Positions 24,348 through 36,936 of a stretch of DNA of 64,000 bases are shown piece after piece. Each line of letters starts with the position of its first letter. Position 1 is the first letter of the stretch. This stretch comes from Desulfobacterales bacterium (GTDB taxonomy: Bacteria > Desulfobacterota > Desulfobacteria > Desulfobacterales > C00003060), in contig JAUWXF010000001.1 of NCBI GenBank assembly GCA_030616475.1, positions 6,845-70,844 of the forward strand, written 5' to 3'. The notes below the pieces were generated by a model. The model was not told the origin of the DNA. It was given only the letters and a program-made list of their open reading frames with translations, and did no database searches. A program made the position numbers and the translations under genes.

Positions 24348-26003
24348 ATGTTTTACACAATCACCCTATATGCTTCCCTGGCCATTTTCGGTATTGGTTT
24401 GGTCTACAAGATATCGGCCTGGTTCCGATACAAGATCGGCCGAGATGCCAGAAATATTTCGGTCTCAACCAGGATTTCTGCAGCCATAAAGGGGATTCTA
24501 TCGACTCTTTTCAGTGCAAAGATCGGTATACTGCTTAAGGTCTTTATCCTGGATGTACTCCTTCAGACATGGTTATTGAGGAAGGACTTTGTCCGGTGAT
24601 TGGCCCACATATGTATCTTCGGCGGTTTTATGTTGCTCCTTTTGATGCATGCGCTGGAGAAGTACATTACCTCGGTTCTATTTGCAGAGTATTATTCGAC
24701 CCTGAACCCTTTTATGTTCTTAAGAGACCTCTTTGGCGCCATGGTGATCGTGGGGTTAGCCCTTGTCCTTTATCGAAGATTTTTTTCTAAGAAAGCCCGT
24801 CCCACAACGAGTGGTATGGATTACTACGCCATCATCATCCTGGCTGCCATTATGATCCTTGGTGTTCTGTTGGAGGCAACCAAAATAGTATCGCATTCCA
24901 GGTATGAGGAGATGGTGGAAGAATACGCCATGTTGGAAGAAGAAGAGGCGATGTCTCTTGAGGCCTACTGGGTCGAAAAATTCAGTGTGATTTCCCCTGA
25001 CGTAAAAGGGCCTTTTGATAAGGATACCCTGGAAGAGGGTAAGGGATTGCACGAAATGAGCTGTGCCGACTGCCACTCCCGTCCCCAATGGGCATTCATG
25101 GGCTATGCCGTAGCCAAGGTAATTCAGCCTGTATACTTTGCCCATACTTTCATGTGGTATCTACATTTCTTAGCCTGCTTCATTGGCCTGGCCTATCTTC
25201 CTTTCAGCAAATTTTTCCACATCTTTGCCACCCCTGTGACCCTCCTTCTCAATGCTGTGATGGAGCGAGGAAAATCAGATCCGGCCAATATGGCCACCAA
25301 GCAGGCTATTGAACTGGACGCCTGCATCCGCTGTGGCGACTGCACGACGCGGTGTTCTGTTGCCGTGGCTTTTAAACAAATTCCCAATCCGAACATCCTT
25401 CCGTCTGAGAAAATGGCTGCATTAAGGGCCCTGGTCTCTGGCAAGAAACTGAGTGAAAAAGAACTTCGGACTATTCAGGAAGGGAGCCATATCTGCACAG
25501 ATTGTCATCGTTGCACGGATGTCTGTATGGTAGGCATCAACCTGGAGGACCTGTGGTTCAGCATGAGAGATAATCTGGCTCAACTGGGGTATCCGAAACC
25601 CGAGGCTTGGGCCAGAGAGGCCATGCGTGCTGATTACGGTTTGACAAAGATGAAGGACAAGACTTTATCCCTTACACCTGCTGACAGAGGATTCTTAGGG
25701 GAATTAACCGGCTCGGCACAGGCCAGTACCTTCTCTGTCTGCTTTGGGTGTGAGAATTGCACCAATGTGTGCCCTGTGGTAGGCAACTATGAGAACCCGC
25801 AGGAGGTCGTGGGTTTAATGCCGCATCAGATCATGCACACCCTTGCGTTGGGCTGCAGAGATCTCGCTTTAGGCTCCAGTATGCTGTGGGACTGTGTGAC
25901 CTGCTACACATGTCAGGAGTACTGTCCCCAGGGGGTATGTATAACCGATGTGCTTTATGAGCTGAAGAACCTGGCATTTCGTCAGTTGAAGAAGGTGGCC
26001 TAA
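24348..26003 (+). CDS. Membrane NarI/HdrE-like domain fused to an HdrC-like FeS domain with four Cys-cluster motifs. The frame is interrupted by an in-frame TGA at 24597..24599.
   Basis: Track ORFs 24348..24599 and 24600..26003 share one frame. Hydrophobic helices with conserved His are present (LAHICIFGG, MHALEKY, HFLACF). Cluster motifs are CIRCGDCTTRC, CTDCHRCTDVC, CFGCENCTNVCP and CVTCYTCQEYCP. Confidence 0.7.
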
Positions 26004-26023: not shown

Positions 26024-26869
26024 ATGAAATATGCACTATTTCTGGGCTGTACCATTCCTGCCCGCCTGAAAGCGTATGAGTCTTCTTCAAGGGCTGTCTT
26101 AGGGAAGCTGGATGTCACCCTGGTGGATATCGACGAATTCAAGTGTTGTGGATATCCATTGAGAAACATCGACTTCAAGGCCTTTGTGCTCTCTTCAGCC
26201 AGGAATTTGGCCCTGGCTAAAAAGGAAGGCTTAGAGGTTATGACGCTGTGCAAGTGTGGCTACGGGACCTTGAAGAAGGCAGCGCATCTCATGAAGGAGA
26301 ATACTTCCTTACGAGAAGAGATCAATGCGATCTTGGCCGAGGAGGGCTTGCAATATGAGGCAGGGATTGACATCATGCATCTTCTCACGGTGCTTTATAA
26401 GGAGGTGGGGCTTGAGGCCATAAAGGAAAAGATAACGAGGCCTTATGAAAACCTCAAGGTTGCCACCCACTACGGTTGCCATGCCTTGCGCCCAAGTCAA
26501 GTCACCCAATTTGATGATCCTGTAGCCCCGACCCTCTTTGATGAACTTGTCAACATCACCGGTGCCAAGAGTATAGAGTGGTCCACCAAGCTCGAATGTT
26601 GCGGGGGCCCGTTGCTCGGGCTAAATGACGAGCTTTCTTTTGTTTTCAGAGACAAAAAGCTGTTAGATGCCAAAAAAGCGGGGGCTGACTATCTAACCAC
26701 CGGATGCCCATTTTGTCAGATTCAGTTCGACACGGTCCAAAACCACCACATCCCCTCCATTCTCTATTCCCAACTCCTGGGGCTTTGTCTGGGGTTGGAC
26801 AAACAGGCTCTTGGGCTCGACAGCAAGCGTACAGACATAGCAAAGATAGAGAATTTTTTGGCGCCGTAG
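26024..26869 (+). CDS. HdrB-like subunit (two CCG domains)
   Basis: 281-aa ORF with FKCCGYP and LECCGGP CCG motifs plus GCPFCQ. It starts 20 nt after the preceding gene. Confidence 0.9.
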   Translation: MKYALFLGCTIPARLKAYESSSRAVLGKLDVTLVDIDEFKCCGYPLRNIDFKAFVLSSARNLALAKKEGLEVMTLCKCGYGTLKKAAHLMKENTSLREEINAILAEEGLQYEAGIDIMHLLTVLYKEVGLEAIKEKITRPYENLKVATHYGCHALRPSQVTQFDDPVAPTLFDELVNITGAKSIEWSTKLECCGGPLLGLNDELSFVFRDKKLLDAKKAGADYLTTGCPFCQIQFDTVQNHHIPSILYSQLLGLCLGLDKQALGLDSKRTDIAKIENFLAP

Positions 26870-27091: not shown

Positions 27092-28438
27092 CTATTCTTC
27101 CTCTTCTATCTCAACACCGTCCCTTTCATACTGGGCATCTCGTTCTTCATGGGCCTTCTTGACCTCTTCCTCGCTCCACGGTTCGATGATCAGGGCCTCT
27201 GCCACCATCTCCCAGAGATAGAAGACCCTGGCGGTAACATTGAACTCCTTGCTGAGGGCCTTCATGATCTGGTCCCGGCAGTTGTGGCAGGGGGCGCAGA
27301 GCAGTTCGGCGCCTGTCGCGTTGATCTGGTCAGCCTTCCACTTGCCGTAGTCGAGCCGCTCCTTTGTATAAGGCATGGCCCAGGCCCCGCCGCCTGCACC
27401 GCAGCAAATGCCGTTTAGCCCGTGGGGTTCCATCTCAACTATATCTTCGTCATTGAACAAATGCTTGATTATGTACCGATACTCTTCCATGTAGTGCTGG
27501 CCAAAAGACATTTGTGACTTTCTAAAATAATTGCACGGCTCGTGCAGGGTTACCTTCTTGCCGGCAAACTTTGACTTATCTACCTTGATCCTGCCTGTTT
27601 CAAGGTATTCTTTTAAGACGTCATAAATACTTACACATCTGAATTCTTCAAAGGCCTCTGGAAACCATTTCGTGAAACCCAACCGGGTCGCAAAGTATGC
27701 ATGGCCTCATTCCGGATATAGGAGCGTCTTGGCACCTACCTTTCTGGCATTCTCAATCACGCGACCGACCTGCTCTTTCATGGCCTCATCATCACCGGAA
27801 AAAAGGCCCCAGTTGACCCCCTCCCAATTCTGCTTGGGCACCGTCCAGCTCTCTTTGGCCGCATAAAAGATCCGCCACCAGAACATCATGTCGTACGGCT
27901 CGCCCATGGGCTCCTTGGAGTTGATGGTGACAATAATGTTTGCCCCTTCCTTATCGACAGGGCAATAAAATCCCGGGTAGGGAGGATATTCCTCAGCGTC
28001 TTCTTCTTCCAGCTCAACAGTTCCTTCTTCCATCTCCTTGCTCAGATCGGCAAGCAAAAAGAGATAATCGAACTCGGGAATCCCAAGGTTGTTCCCCCTT
28101 TCCAGGTTCATGACAACCCCTTTGTGGATGACACCGGGGACCTTGTCGCGCTCACGATGCGTGCGCGCATTTCTCAAAAGTGACAACAGTTGAACCCCCT
28201 GGGGGCACGCATACTGGCACCGGCCGCACAGGGTGCAGATCCAGGGCCACCGGGAGTCGATCAGCTCCTGTTCCAGGCCCAGAAGCACGGCACGGACCGC
28301 CTTTCTCGGGTCCCAGCCGTCCACGCCCGTGACCGCGCAGCCGCTGGCACAGGTGCCGCACGTAAAGCATACGTCTGCCCACTCGGGCTGTACTGCCAGC
28401 TTGTTCTTTGGTCGTTTGGTCAGGTCTAAAGCTTCCAT
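27092..28438 (-). CDS. HdrD-like FeS/CCG-domain protein with an in-frame TGA (predicted selenocysteine) at 27707..27709
   Basis: Track ORFs 27707..28438 and 27092..27682 share one frame and are joined through ..LLYPE-TGA-GHAYFATRLGFTKW. The N-terminus has CFTCGTCASGC and CTLCGRCQYACP. The C-terminus has GICCGAGGG and CAPCHNC. The hairpin ACCCGGUUGGGU (27677..27688) lies 18 nt 3' of the UGA. Confidence 0.8.
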
Positions 28439-28488: not shown

Positions 28489-29376
28489 TTATACATTCTG
28501 GGCCAGCACAACACCGGGCTTGTCGGTTTCGACTATCTCTCCAGGCTTGCCCAGGAAGCTGGCATAATCGACTTCAACGCCTAACCGCTTTGCTGCTCCT
28601 TCGATGATGGGCGGAAGCTGGGGCTGGGTCAAGAGCACAAGGAGGTCAAAGGTTTCGGTCTTTTCACTGCCGTCTGCCTCATACTTGAGTTCAATGTCTT
28701 TGTTTTCGCCCACCTCGGCAGCATCAACCACCGTGCCATTGATGAACGTTATGCCGGAAACCTTGTCCAGGTCGCTGCCTGCACTCGTTTTAAAGGCGTC
28801 CATATTCGGGGATACAAAACTGATTTCGACTCCGTCTATTCTCTTCTGGGCAATGACGGCCTCATTGATCCCAAGGATAAGGGCGGCATCCCGGACCTTA
28901 TCATCAACCGATCCAAAGGTCTGTACAAACCCAATTTTTTTCGGAATCTCACCGTCCTGGGGGCGGAGGATGAACCCGTTGCTCGCCCCTGTGTCGGCCA
29001 GCATCCGCTCCACCTGTAGATCGGTGACCACGTTCATATGTCTGTTGCCATAGCTGCCGGCTATGGGCCTGATCTTTCGCTGCATCCCGGAACTAAGGAT
29101 AACTTCGTCCACTTCGAGGTCAAGATCTTCGTCCTGCATCTCAAAGTTGATCGCCTCAGGCTTGCACTCGGCCCAGCACAGGGCGCATCCGAGACATCGC
29201 CGGCAGGAAAAGCACCGCTTGGCCTCGGCAACGGCCACCTCTTCAGGGAACCCGGTTTCAACTTCCTTAAAGTTTCCCTGACGTTCTTCAACCTCAATCT
29301 CCGGCATCTCTGCCCGCTCGGCCGGAATATCCTGGAAGTCTATGATGTAGCGTCCCTTTTTCTCGTAGATATACAT
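28489..29376 (-). CDS. HdrA C-terminal-half-like protein (second part of a split HdrL-type enzyme)
   Basis: 295-aa ORF. FPEEVAVAEAKRCFSCRRCLGCALCWAEC aligns with FSEEDAQREANRCLNCGICCECMECVQAC of 12344..15757. It starts 1 nt after the stop of 29378..31048. Confidence 0.8.
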   Translation of the reverse strand: MYIYEKKGRYIIDFQDIPAERAEMPEIEVEERQGNFKEVETGFPEEVAVAEAKRCFSCRRCLGCALCWAECKPEAINFEMQDEDLDLEVDEVILSSGMQRKIRPIAGSYGNRHMNVVTDLQVERMLADTGASNGFILRPQDGEIPKKIGFVQTFGSVDDKVRDAALILGINEAVIAQKRIDGVEISFVSPNMDAFKTSAGSDLDKVSGITFINGTVVDAAEVGENKDIELKYEADGSEKTETFDLLVLLTQPQLPPIIEGAAKRLGVEVDYASFLGKPGEIVETDKPGVVLAQNV

Positions 29377-29377
29377 T

Positions 29378-31048
29378 CTACTTCTTCCCTCTCAGATATT
29401 TGTGAATCGATTCCGCTGCGGTTTTGCCACCTGCACAGGCCCGGACAGCAATATTTGCACCTGTGGCAGCATCGCCTGATGCAAACACCCCTTCCACATT
29501 GGTCTCAAAGGTCTTGGGGTTCACCTCAAAATTGAACTTTCTGCCGATCTTAAACCCGTGCTTTTCTTCAACCACACTGGTGTCCGTGACCTGGCCAATG
29601 GCGGCAAAGACGGTATCAGCGTCCATGACAAATTCCGAACCCTCAATCGGCACAGGTCTTCGCCTGCCGCTGGCGTCAGGTTCGCCAAGCTCCATTTTCA
29701 AACATTGCATCCCCACGGCCTTGCCATCCTTGACGACAACTTCCTGGGGGGCTACCAGAAAGTGAAACTTGATCCCCTCGTGCTCTGCCGCGTCTACTTC
29801 CCACGGGCTTGCCGGCATCTCCTTACGGGTTCGACGGTACAGCAGATTGACCTCGTCAAAGCCTACACGGAGACCAGTCCTTGCAACGTCCATGGCCACA
29901 TTGCCGCCGCCAACCACGATCGCTATACCCTTGTTGGGGACCTCATTGCCGAGGCCCGCGTCCCTCAAGAACTTAACACCCTCAAAGACGCCCTCGGCAT
30001 CCTCGTTCTTGACCCGCATGCTCATGCCCATATGGGCGCCAATGGCAACGAGAACCGCGTCATAGTCCTTTCGGATATCATCAAAGCTGATGTCCTTTCC
30101 AATCCGGACACCGCACTTGATCTCCACCCCGTGTTTTTCGACAAATTCAACATCCTTGGCCAGAATCGCCTTGGGAAGCCTGTATTCGGGAATCCCCACC
30201 AGAAACATCCCGCCGGGTTTGGGGAGGGCCTCAAAAACCGTTATGTTATTCTGATATCCGAGCAGTGCCAGGTGATAGGCACAGGTCAACCCGCTGGGGC
30301 CCCCTCCGATAATCGCGATCTTTTCAGGATAGGTCTCATCAGAAACGGTGATCGTGGGCTCAATGTCATTATAAACCTCGTGGTCGGCCACAAAACGCTT
30401 CAAGAAACAGATGCTGATCGGCTCATCCTTGTACCCGCGGTTGCACTCGAACTCGCACGGATGGGGGCACACACGCCCTATACTCAAGGGAAAGGGGAGC
30501 TTCTTTCGGATGGCGGCCAGAGACTCGGCATACTTCCCGTCTGCAATGTAGCCAACATATGTGCGAATATCTAAATTGATCGGACAGGTCCGCTGGCAAA
30601 CAGGCATATCCTCCTTGAACACATTGTAGTTGCCCGAACCTTTGTTGAAAAAATCAACAGCAGTGCGCCATTCAAGGGCCTCATTGTAGTCATCATACAT
30701 GTGGATCGGGCATACCTTGATACACTCCCCACAGTCATCACATTTCTCACGGTCAACCCGGGGTGTTCGACGGTGGATCTTGACCTTGTATTTGCCGTTT
30801 TCCCCGACCAGCGATCGCAGCTCAGCGCTATCTATGACCTGTATTGCCTTGTTTTCTTTTACTGCTGCCAAATCAGGCGCCGTGAAGAAATCACCATCAT
30901 TTATTATCCTGTCCTGCGAAATCCTTTCCCCGCCAATGCTGGGAAAGTCTTCCACCATAAAAACCTTATTGCCGGCATCGGCCTGGGCCAACGCCGCCCT
31001 AACGCCTGCAATACCGCCACCAATGATCAATACATTTTTCTCAGCCAC
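29378..31048 (-). CDS. HdrA-N-terminal-like + NfnB/GltD-like NAD(P)H:FAD module (first part of a split HdrL-type enzyme); GTG start
   Basis: 556-aa ORF with IIGGGIAGVRAAL, CDDCGECIKVCP, CPHPCEFEC, IIGGGPSGL, GGGNVAMD and DASGRRRP. Confidence 0.85.
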   Translation of the reverse strand: MAEKNVLIIGGGIAGVRAALAQADAGNKVFMVEDFPSIGGERISQDRIINDGDFFTAPDLAAVKENKAIQVIDSAELRSLVGENGKYKVKIHRRTPRVDREKCDDCGECIKVCPIHMYDDYNEALEWRTAVDFFNKGSGNYNVFKEDMPVCQRTCPINLDIRTYVGYIADGKYAESLAAIRKKLPFPLSIGRVCPHPCEFECNRGYKDEPISICFLKRFVADHEVYNDIEPTITVSDETYPEKIAIIGGGPSGLTCAYHLALLGYQNNITVFEALPKPGGMFLVGIPEYRLPKAILAKDVEFVEKHGVEIKCGVRIGKDISFDDIRKDYDAVLVAIGAHMGMSMRVKNEDAEGVFEGVKFLRDAGLGNEVPNKGIAIVVGGGNVAMDVARTGLRVGFDEVNLLYRRTRKEMPASPWEVDAAEHEGIKFHFLVAPQEVVVKDGKAVGMQCLKMELGEPDASGRRRPVPIEGSEFVMDADTVFAAIGQVTDTSVVEEKHGFKIGRKFNFEVNPKTFETNVEGVFASGDAATGANIAVRACAGGKTAAESIHKYLRGKK

Positions 31049-31081
31049 TTTTTATCCCTCTTGTTCAACATAGTTTAATGT

Positions 31082-31114
31082 CTCGTAAATTCTACGGCCT
31101 ATTGAAATCATAAC
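31082..31114 (-). promoter_or_regulatory. Motif A copy (degenerate) upstream of 29378..31048
   Basis: CTCGTAAATTCTACGGCCTATTGAAATCATAAC. Confidence 0.3.
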
Positions 31115-31188
31115 TCATCGTTCGCTTAATAAATTCGTACTTAGTACTTAGATTAATTCTTATATGGACCTAAATCTTTATCCCGTTT

Positions 31189-31402
31189 TGGTTTCAGGTT
31201 TCAGGGCACATGTAGGTTTCAGGTGTCAGTGTTCAGGTGTCAGGAAAGTAAAACGGCAGTGCTGAAACCTGATTGTCCCTGACACCTTTATATGTCCTGA
31301 CACCTGACACCTGACACCTCAATCCTCGGGTACGGGCCAGCCTTGAGGGAGGGGTTCATCATTGTCACTGCGTTCTCCCCTGAAACCCGAAACCTGAAAC
31401 CA
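31189..31402. repeat. Stutter-hairpin element of the TCAGGTGTCAGG / CCTGACACCTGA family
   Basis: GGTTTCAGGTTTCAGGG..GGTTTCAGGTGTCAGTGTTCAGGTGTCAGG faces CCTGACACCTGACACCTGACACC and CCTGAAACCCGAAACCTGAAACC. The same family occurs at 6866..6988 and 37533..37604. Confidence 0.8.
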
Positions 31403-31497
31403 GAGGAATATATATATCTTTTTATAGATTCTCAAAATTAACAAAAGTCTATCCCTATTAAGCGAATGATAAGATTCCATTAATCCATTAATTCCAA

Positions 31498-32280
31498 TTA
31501 GGGCGAAGCCCCTAACTTGTATAAAGGTGTATGATCCTTTACACTCTCCATCTCCACAAAGCCACGCCGCTTCAAACCGAGTATGTATTTCAAGGTCTCC
31601 GGAGGAGGAATTTCAAGCTCCTTCGCCAACTGCTTGACTGAGGCCGATTTGTTCTGCAAGGCTGCCAGAATGGAATGGGTGGCCATCTCGTCAATAACAA
31701 TGCCGCTTAAGGTGCGGTTTATCTCGTGCTCGGTAAAAACCTCATGATACTTGTTGCCTGTATCAACGAAGACAGGCTTTTTCCCAACGACCCACCGCAA
31801 TTTGGGCCCTGCAAGGGCCGTTTTGGCAATTTCAAGGTTCTCCTTGAGCTTTGGCAAGGGGACCTTGTCAGCCTCGCCTCCTAGTGGGCCGAGTTCTCTT
31901 ATCTCTGTGGAAAAATCGGTGACATGTTTCACAAAAAGCTCACTCTCCGCAGAAGAGAGGTTGCGAAATGACAACCGTCCCGGATTCATCCCTGCATAAG
32001 CGAGCATTTCCCCGGTCATGTTTATCTTGTGCCTGGCATTAAAATTCCCGCTCACATAATGACATTCGCCAAAAAGACAGCCGAGCACCAACAACCCATC
32101 AAGACCGTGAATAAAGGCATCAGCCATAATGACAGGGTCCATCCTGCCCGTGCACATAAGACGAATGACCCTGATATCCGTTGTGTATTGCATCCTGGAC
32201 ACGCCAGCGAGGTCACCTGCCGAGTAACCTCACCACGTGCAGCAAAAGGTCAATATCTTAGGGGTAAAATCCTCTGCCAT
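31498..32280 (-). CDS. MvhD-like domain (in-frame TGA, predicted Sec, at 32230..32232) fused to a C-terminal winged-helix-like domain
   Basis: ATG at 32278-32280 lies 8 nt after AGGAGG. My translation is [36 protein letters not shown].., continuing in frame into track ORF 31498..32202. The C-terminus ASVKQLAKELEIPPPETLKYILGLKRRGFVEM looks like a wHTH. Confidence 0.75.
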
Positions 32281-35768: not shown

Positions 35769-35809
35769 GCGGCGTAGCCGCGTTATATAAAATCGCGTAG
35801 CGATTTTAT
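35769..35809. repeat. Family-5 double mini-hairpin (GCGGC-GTA-GCCGC + ATAAAATCGC-GTA-GCGATTTTAT) overlapping the 35806 stop
   Basis: GCGGCGTAGCCGCGTTATATAAAATCGCGTAGCGATTTTAT. Copies occur at 46615..46655 and, inverted, at 53107..53147. Confidence 0.8.
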
Positions 35810-36936
35810 CCACCGTTCATGGCAGAAACGACCATTTCAGTGAGATCTTTAATCTTGATATCAATACCCTCTATAAAACTTGCAGCACAACTAAAATGAA
35901 TATTACACTTGGGACAGGCAGTAATCAAAGTGTCCGCCCCGGTTGCCATCGACTCTTTCAATCTGTTGCCTTGAATCTCCTTTGAGCAGGTAGAACAGTT
36001 CATCCATCCGGTAGTCCCGCAGCAAACAGAATTTTCGCCGTTCCTTTCCATCTCCACAAAGGAGGCCGCAACCCCGTTAATGATGTCGCGCGGGCTCTCA
36101 TATATACCTGCCAGCCGCCCCAGCCGGCACGGATCCTGGTACGTCACCACGCCATTCGATTTTTCTAATGTTAATTCCCCGGCCTTTAACCTTTCCGCCA
36201 GAAAATCGTAGAAGTGAATAACCTCAAAATCGAGATCTCCGAAATACTTTGTATAGTAATTCTTGAAGATATAATATCCTTCAGGGCAATGGAAGATGAC
36301 CTTCTTACTCCCCGCCTCTTTGATTACTTCAATATTGGCCGCAGCCAACTTCTTGAAGGTTTCAACCTCGCCATTCCAGAGCATATCATGTCCGCAGCAT
36401 TTTTCGTCGTTGCTAACCACCGGCTCAATGCCCAATTTATTCAAAATCTTGATGACATTTCGTCCGATATCTAATGGCTGCGAAGGAAAATTTGCAAAAA
36501 TGACATTGAAATAGGGTAAGCAGCCCACAAAATAGAAATACTCCCCCTTGTCTGCAATACTGCCTGCCTCTTTTGCCCAGGTAATCCTGTCCTGCTTGAT
36601 TCCGGATGACTGTATCTCCATAATCGATTGGAACATACCACTGTGTGCAGGGCTGCCCTTATTGCCAAGCCTCAGTGCCTCCTCTCTGATCCCCCTGGCA
36701 AATTCCAGGTAGTCGATGTTAGCCGGGCACCTGTGGGTACACCGTGCACAGGTCAGACAGGACCATACATCGGGATCCGTCAGGAAATCTTCGGCCTTGC
36801 CCATAAGAGCCTTTTCAACCATCAGGCGGGGCGAGAATCCGGGTGAATACCGCGCCACCGGGCAGCTACCTGTACAAACGCCGCAGTCCAAACAGTAGTA
36901 AGCCTTGGTTTCATCTACTAATGCTTCAATGTTCAT
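35806..36936 (-). CDS. HdrD-like protein (HdrC-type 2x[4Fe-4S] + two CCG domains)
   Basis: 376-aa ORF with CLDCGVCTGSCP, CLTCARCTHRCP, EKCCGHD, SVCCGTTG and CPKCN. Confidence 0.9.
   Translation of the reverse strand: MNIEALVDETKAYYCLDCGVCTGSCPVARYSPGFSPRLMVEKALMGKAEDFLTDPDVWSCLTCARCTHRCPANIDYLEFARGIREEALRLGNKGSPAHSGMFQSIMEIQSSGIKQDRITWAKEAGSIADKGEYFYFVGCLPYFNVIFANFPSQPLDIGRNVIKILNKLGIEPVVSNDEKCCGHDMLWNGEVETFKKLAAANIEVIKEAGSKKVIFHCPEGYYIFKNYYTKYFGDLDFEVIHFYDFLAERLKAGELTLEKSNGVVTYQDPCRLGRLAGIYESPRDIINGVAASFVEMERNGENSVCCGTTGWMNCSTCSKEIQGNRLKESMATGADTLITACPKCNIHFSCAASFIEGIDIKIKDLTEMVVSAMNGG

Follow-up and report, generated by a model that had tools for sequence, protein, structure and literature searches.

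The selenoprotein family catalogued as 'Fe-S oxidoreductase (GlpC)-like' has been known since 2004-2006 (Zhang et al., 2006, PMC1794560; PMC1976440). A 2026 review, in which Kryukov and Gladyshev (2004) are cited for this family, lists it in a table with the selenocysteine (Sec) motif UGH (PMC13188914), and an 'Fe-S oxidoreductase (GlpC)' selenoprotein was described in a glpC-hdrA-frhD-frhG-frhA operon (PMC1794560). Here, we analysed a minus-strand gene (28438..27092) in a 64,000-nucleotide (nt) stretch of DNA from a Desulfobacterales bacterium (assembly GCA_030616475.1, contig JAUWXF010000001.1), hereafter the window. With its in-frame TGA read as Sec (U), the gene translates as one frame of 448 residues. 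It very probably encodes a soluble, single-CCG member of the HdrD/DsrK/HmcF/TmcB group that belongs to the GlpC-like (UGH) family and would work by the mechanism proposed below.

Both the target protein and the catalogued family (reference protein WP_174406253.1) have one Sec in U-G-H, a Fer4 plus CCG architecture, a deltaproteobacterial lineage of the sulfate-reducer or syntroph type, and gene clusters with hdrA and mvhD (frhD), which are themselves selenoprotein genes. Five marks of the family were found here, namely a UGA opposite a Cys column, a single Sec in U-G-H, a hairpin with a GG-opening loop, selA, selB and tRNA-Sec, and clustering with hdrA and mvhD; the comparison with catalogued selenoproteins that an earlier note on this DNA had proposed leads to this family and its Sec motif UGH. 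On the other hand, the target lacks the N-terminal HTH_17 domain carried by most full-length Cys homologues, comes after a split HdrA/GltD ('HdrL'-like) pair rather than before a double HdrA, and has an acidic insert of 10-13 amino acids (aa).

DsrK, HmcF and TmcB are the cytoplasmic catalytic subunits of the DsrMKJOP, Hmc and Tmc complexes (PMC10861901). They have one CCG motif and a strictly conserved Cys in (T/G)ECGH, a remnant of the missing cluster, which has been proposed to be catalytic in DsrC-trisulfide reduction or to be a possible cluster ligand (PMC10861901). Like the target, these subunits contain two cubane clusters, one complete C-terminal CCG domain and a degenerate lobe with a lone conserved Cys, which in the target is Sec (E-U-GH). 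The target differs in having Sec for Cys, soluble HdrA/GltD/MvhD partners, and no adjacent membrane cytochrome b partner (DsrM, HmcE, TmcC) on the same strand. Its best NCBIfam matches were far below the equivalog cut-offs (HmcF, 181 against 750 bits; TmcB, 140 against 735; DsrK, 122 against 400). 

HdrB and HdrD of methanogens (PDB 5odc) have two complete CCG motifs and two non-cubane clusters, and split disulfides homolytically (Wagner et al., 2017, via PMC10861901 and PMC13083937). They share with the target the two-lobe CCG fold, and the HdrC-like domain of the target is fused N-terminally as in HdrD, whereas only one non-cubane cluster is possible in the target, with Sec in place of the second. 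The two complete CX(n)CCGX(n)CX2C motifs that define HdrD were not found, as the target has one Pfam CCG match. The best structural match of the target model was Mycobacterium smegmatis EtfD (PDB 9ojn), in which the N-lobe loop C581-P-H583-C584 aligns with U244-G-H246-A. In EtfD, His583 completes the coordination of the non-cubane cluster that is held by the other, C-terminal CCG lobe (PMC13083937). Unlike the target, EtfD is membrane-bound and without Sec, keeps a linear [3Fe-4S] cluster in its N-lobe, and has clusters that are buried and non-catalytic (PMC13083937).

The family, its Sec motif and its tie to hdrA/mvhD operons are already published, and the gain reported here is incremental. 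New are the placement of Sec at the CX2C site of a lobe without a cluster, the recasting of a supposed insertion as that lobe, and the match of UGH to C-P-H(583) of a solved structure. Literature searches found no published link between this Sec and the ECGH Cys of DsrK.

Decoding of UGA-244

The gene starts with ATG, preceded at 6 nt by an AGGAGG ribosome-binding site, and its sole in-frame TGA is codon 244 (27709..27707), in the context ...AKTLLYPE-U-GHAYFATRLG.... This agrees with the UGA in YPE-U-GHAY that the earlier note had located at 27707..27709, and places it on the minus strand. TGA closed 13 of the 35 open frames of at least 250 codons in the window, several of these being the window's other Sec sites; since TGA ends ordinary frames here, it is not globally reassigned. 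Genes for SelA (627 bits), SelB (389 bits, above the cut-off) and a tRNA-Sec (anticodon tca) are all present in the source genome, which spans 3.79 Mb in 360 contigs.

Among 5.8 billion proteins searched, 1295 matched as homologues, and the U244 column was counted in the best 120, which are full-length single chains of 357-534 aa. The column held Cys in 96 of these, Ser in 15, and Gly, Leu, Ile, Thr, Ala, Val or Tyr in the remaining nine. Of 40 related genomes searched in six frames, 37 had the gene. An internal TGA was present in 29 fetched loci from about 25 genomes, always at the U244 column, and all stop-free loci fetched from relatives had TGC or TGT in that column (21/21). The Sec orthologues read PE-U-GHAY (42-80% identity), and a remoter clade reads NTE-U-GHV (about 34% identity). 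Both halves flanking the UGA are conserved and under purifying selection. This pattern of TGA and Cys in one column is the standard signature of a selenoprotein, and UGA-244 is therefore well supported, at the level of sequence, as a genuine Sec codon. The reading of the UGA as Sec in the earlier note is thus borne out by the column pattern, by the presence of selA, selB and tRNA-Sec, and by a hairpin behind the codon.

The hairpin (GACCC-GGUU-GGGUU; 27676..27689, minus strand) resembles a selenocysteine insertion sequence (SECIS) element, with a stem that begins 17 nt past the UGA and an apical loop that opens with GG. A hairpin with a GG-opening loop (GGUU, GGUC, GGCU or GGC) was found at the same place in 28 of 28 distinct Sec genes, 17-20 nt downstream of the UGA, and its stem showed compensatory variants (ACCC/GGGU, ACUA/UAGU, ACCA/UGGU, GUCCG/CGGAC and GUCCU/AGGAC). 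The loops GGUC and GGUU presumably resemble the SelB-binding loop of E. coli fdhF. When pairs were counted in a fixed register, 78% were paired and 11-12 of 500 shuffles did as well, and a second register was 60% paired; the hairpin adopts two registers across clades, so the covariation in any single register is modest. The folding energy was -8.8 kcal/mol in Sec genes and -5.0 kcal/mol in distant Cys paralogues (p=8e-5). The contrast was weaker with seven close Cys/Ser orthologues, in which the energies ranged from 0 to -9.6 kcal/mol. The hairpin speaks for Sec but is not decisive alone.

Several results weigh against the Sec reading or against the importance of the residue. No Rfam family matched anywhere in the window at gathering thresholds, and the search of a 500-nt region against Rfam at E<=10 returned chance snoRNA-like matches alone; the check for a SECIS element downstream of the UGA hence yielded a GG-loop hairpin and no Rfam match. 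The minimum free energy of the 73-nt stretch past the UGA was not significant (z = -0.65). Furthermore, the hairpin coincides with the codons for a conserved ATR(L/S)G peptide, and three of the seven close Cys/Ser orthologues also fold one there. Finally, the U244 column is Ser, Gly or aliphatic in 24 of the 120 homologues, which indicates that this residue is not indispensable in every family member.

In about 20% of the full-length homologues (P0004, P0014, P0027 and others), Sec/Cys is replaced by Ser, Gly or an aliphatic residue and all of the cluster Cys are kept; one locus (L071:3001-4449) has the Ser codon TCG. The closest Cys orthologue (L068:4013-5350, 58% identity) has TGT at the Sec column and keeps the hairpin AACCCG-GUU-CGGGUU, and it is the only one of the seven close Cys/Ser orthologues to retain the GGUU-loop form. 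This suggests a recent change from Sec to Cys that left a SECIS remnant behind, a type of event that has been described (PMC1794560).

Position of Sec244 in the fold

The full-length, single-chain homologues with Cys at the UGA column and the ribosome-binding site define one gene over 27092..28438 (minus strand), coding for an HdrD/DsrK/HmcF-like Fe-S selenoprotein. The protein begins with a ferredoxin domain (residues 21-82, 28193..28378; Pfam Fer4_8/Fer4_17) that contains two CX2CX2CX3C motifs (C24/27/30/34 and C68/71/74/78). This domain matched solved HdrC chains with E values of about 1e-12 to 1e-19 in a profile search of solved structures, and is assigned from its motifs as an HdrC-like domain with two cubane [4Fe-4S] sites. 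A complete CCG domain lies towards the C-terminus (residues 296-391, 27266..27553; Pfam CCG E=5e-10) and is the single CCG domain that Pfam recognises in the protein. Its five invariant Cys (C302, C345-C346-G347 and C384-x-x-C387) form a predicted non-cubane [4Fe-4S] site. All Sec genes keep the eight Cys of the ferredoxin domain and the five of the CCG domain.

The region between the two domains had been taken for an acidic insertion of about 150 aa. Residues of about 150-292 (27563..27991, minus strand) instead form a degenerate, conserved N-terminal CCG-like lobe that is common to HmcF, TmcB and DsrK, and the HmcF profile match runs unbroken over positions 57-451. The lobe keeps the beta-alpha topology of the CCG fold. 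The lineage-specific acidic stretch is only 10-13 residues long (GTVELEEEDAEEY) and is limited to the target and its closest orthologues; it lies within a short acidic insertion at about residues 136-152 (MEEGTVELEEEDAEEYP; 27983..28033), which is gapped in all but the closest orthologues and occupies insert columns in hhalign. Position 244 is the sole conserved Cys/Sec of the N-lobe, as C159 and C268 are not conserved. Having lost all other Cys, the lobe cannot bind a cluster of its own, and Sec is therefore no ligand of a second non-cubane cluster.

Sec244 (27707..27709; PE-U-G-H) was placed by alignment to homologues, HmcF, the two-CCG paralogue at 35806..36936, and EtfD. BLASTP against the paralogue (E=1e-24) paired U244 with C217 in KKVIFH-C-PEG, and the same pair was obtained when a profile of 73 target-family sequences was aligned by hhalign to one of 33 paralogue-family sequences (local, 99.95% probability; global, 100%). 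In the N-terminal CCG domain of the paralogue, C217 stands at the first Cys position of the terminal CX2C element, and C180-C181-G182 aligns about 38 residues upstream of U244. The paralogue-family profile also matched M. smegmatis EtfD (hhalign, E=1.4e-42), with C217-P-E-G opposite C581-P-H583-C584. A direct hhalign of the target family with EtfD paired U244 with C581 and H246 with H583 at low per-column confidence. One relative has a bona fide HmcF (925 bits, cut-off 750), and the Cys of TECGH in its VVT-E-C-GHAY aligns with U244.

The AlphaFold2 (AF2) model of the target (predicted local distance difference test, pLDDT, 91.2; predicted TM-score, pTM, 0.90) is consistent with this placement. 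N-lobe strands were modelled at 168-170, 198-200 and 238-241, and U244 occupies the loop that links beta 238-241 to helix 246-258; C384 has the corresponding place between beta 379-382 and helix 385-399. The spacing of 58 residues from U244 to C302 fits that from a CX2C element to the first Cys of the next domain (C217-C270, 53 residues, in the paralogue) and not that from a CCG element (C181-C270, 89 residues), which places U244 at the CX2C site. A Foldseek search with the model returned EtfD (9ojn; E=2e-12, TMq 0.66), LutA and whole HdrB chains over 284-308 columns (TMt 0.6-0.66). The matches to whole HdrB chains indicate that residues of about 150-420 form a complete two-lobe HdrB-like module, of which the first lobe is degenerate.

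Other comparisons did not place the N-lobe. Pfam CCG gave no match on the isolated N-lobes (residues 140-292) of three family members even at E<=10, whereas the piece of the paralogue that matches the target N-lobe scored 1.6e-11. The N-lobe and C-lobe profiles of the target family had no significant self-match by hhalign (probability 1.3%), so the repeat relationship is bridged through the two-CCG paralogue family. The profile search of solved structures matched HdrB by the C-terminal lobe only, with no mapping of the N-lobe, and hhalign against the window's HdrB-like protein was not significant (probability 3.6%) and put U244 at the third Cys site (LCK-C-G), not at CCG. A point against the exact register is that the hhalign posterior, about 0.8 over the preceding helix and strand, was only about 0.5 at the U244 column against the paralogue and lower against EtfD.

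From these alignments, U244 is assigned as the first Cys of the former CX2C element of a degenerate N-terminal CCG lobe, and as the same residue as the (T/G)ECGH Cys of HmcF, TmcB and DsrK. The earlier note had put the Sec inside a CCG motif, at or next to the catalytic centre. The first part holds insofar as Sec stands for one of the five Cys of CXnCCGXnCX2C, at the CX2C site and outside the CC(G) pair; the second holds insofar as Sec would sit next to the disulfide-reducing centre, and fails for any role as ligand of a second non-cubane cluster.

Two observations concern the same folds. The Foldseek search also returned Asp/Glu racemases, two-lobe enzymes in which each lobe has one catalytic Cys that follows a beta-strand, and this geometry is proposed, on the model, to be the same as the Sec/cluster arrangement suggested for the target. 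In the paralogue (P0122, 35806-36936, minus strand), an invariant C217-P-E-G takes the place of CX2C at the end of the N-terminal CCG domain. The fifth ('bridging') Cys, which is Cys81 in HdrB, is therefore missing, and the four that are left may bind an unusual cluster, as happens in the N-lobe of EtfD.

Possible roles of Sec244

A catalytic role of Sec244 is suggested by the position of the residue and by its relatives. The electron source would be the neighbouring HdrA/GltD ('HdrL'-like) flavoprotein, alone or together with MvhD, and the two cubane clusters would pass the electrons on to the non-cubane cluster. The U-G-H loop would cross the lobe interface to this single cluster, with the C-P-H-C loop of EtfD and its ligand His583 as a precedent: because His583 ligates the cluster in EtfD and H246 corresponds to H583, the loop should reach the cluster of the target, and the closeness of U244 and H246 to it is expected by homology. 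Sec244 would then act as a nucleophile on a protein or cofactor disulfide or trisulfide, similar to the DsrC-trisulfide, giving a Se-S intermediate that the non-cubane cluster would reduce in one-electron steps. The resting enzyme may, in addition, have Sec244 bound to the special iron of the cluster as a displaceable ligand. Selenium at the lone 'helper' Cys of DsrK-type single-CCG reductases is natural evidence for chemistry at this position, not for structure alone. The alignment of H246 with His583 offers a concrete geometric hypothesis, in which one non-cubane cluster and one chalcogen replace the two clusters of HdrB.

A more specific version of this scheme is tentative. If the U-G-H tripeptide is the counterpart of the C-P-H loop of EtfD, Sec244 and His246, both from the cluster-less lobe, might together fill the coordination sphere of the one non-cubane [4Fe-4S] cluster, and the active site would be a selenium-ligated cluster. 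Binding of the substrate would open the Se-Fe bond and release a selenolate to attack the disulfide or trisulfide. If this is true, the mechanism would be one of cluster plus chalcogen, distinct from the two-cluster homolytic mechanism of HdrB, and the natural Sec/Cys/Ser series in the family would make it directly testable.

Alternatively, Sec244 could be mainly a metal ligand whose Se-Fe bond to the special iron tunes the potential or the 'open' conformation, with no covalent Se-S intermediate; we regard this as possible and rather unlikely. DsrK and TmcB as isolated show an S=1/2 'open cluster' electron paramagnetic resonance signal, and their conserved Cys may bind the cluster (PMC10861901). 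In EtfD, the cluster ligand His583 lies in the same loop, two positions past the Cys aligned to U244 (PMC13083937). However, Sec replaces Cys mostly at redox-active nucleophile positions (PMC1794560, PMC13188914), and the Ser, Gly or aliphatic residues of the 24 otherwise intact homologues are more easily tolerated in place of a helper residue than of an obligatory ligand. The roles of metal ligand and nucleophile are also not mutually exclusive.

It is very improbable that Sec replaces one Cys of the CC pair in a functional CCG motif, where it would be a ligand of a second non-cubane cluster as in HdrB/HdrD. The earlier note had drawn this likeness from the string EKCCGHD, which is indeed present in the paralogue (residues 178-184) and resembles E-U-G-H in its C-C-G-H. 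The equivalent of U244 is nevertheless C217 (VIFH-C-PEG) in BLASTP, in local and global hhalign and in hhalign through EtfD, and these four alignments, the AF2 topology and the domain spacing all point to the CX2C site; the N-lobe has no other conserved Cys and is unrecognised by Pfam CCG. The comparison with the CC pair fails because it rested on a chance look-alike string (CGH).

That the UGA is a true stop, leaving two polypeptides (a 243-aa ferredoxin-like and a roughly 196-aa CCG protein) or a pseudogene, is the least credible reading: the frame is split under table 11, public gene callers usually split such genes and TGA serves as an ordinary stop elsewhere in the window, but 29 genes, some as remote as 34% identity, share TGA at this very column and show purifying selection on both halves, Cys fills that column in all 21 fetched stop-free relatives, the genome has the Sec machinery, and the part downstream of UGA-244 has no ribosome-binding site or conserved start, its earliest possible start being a TTG nine codons on, inside the hairpin. 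The earlier view of one HdrD-like (HdrD/DsrK-like) polypeptide stands, as both halves are conserved and the homologues are single chains. The open reading frames 27707..28438 and 27092..27682 should be joined as one selenoprotein gene.

Genomic neighbourhood

Two genes precede the target gene on the same strand. The first (29378..31048, minus strand) matched by profile an N-terminal piece of HdrA (HdrA ~138-273) and a GltD/NfnB-like NAD(P)H module, and the second (28489..29376, minus strand) a middle fragment of HdrA (HdrA ~270-488). Together they resemble a split 'HdrL', a fusion known from Desulfobacterium autotrophicum, in which an hdrD and an hdrF are also selenoprotein genes (PMC2702500). 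A Sec-containing MvhD gene (31498..32280) lies 450 nt further upstream, with more HdrA genes and the two-CCG HdrD paralogue beyond. A gap of about 450 nt (31049-31497) separates the Sec-containing mvhD from the HdrA/GltD gene, and the three-gene unit that ends in the target may have its own promoter.

The order of HdrA/GltD gene, HdrA fragment and target recurs in genomes of the same genus, and remoter orthologues directly follow mvhD. Full-length Cys orthologues sit in the order hycI-[target orthologue]-double hdrA-mvhD-mvhG-mvhA, which is the published glpC-hdrA-frhD-frhG-frhA operon. In two genomes of the same genus (L042 and L047), a HdrA/GltD pair of 81-95% identity is followed by a different single-CCG paralogue in the slot of the target, which is a Cys-type PDCGGGS protein in one genome and a Sec-type NTEUGHV protein in the other. 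The catalytic subunit thus seems exchangeable. In most Cys orthologues (P0003-P0090; L069-L074), an N-terminal HTH_17 (excisionase/MerR-like) DNA-binding domain is fused to the Fe-S protein, and these genes lie between hycI and a double HdrA of ~1020 aa.

On the other side of the target, a gene at 24348..26003 on the opposite (plus) strand encodes a NarI-like membrane domain and an HdrC-like ferredoxin, with a single in-frame TGA close to its 5' end. An HdrB-like gene (26024-26869) comes next, and the two belong to a separate HdrB-containing unit that is convergent with the target.

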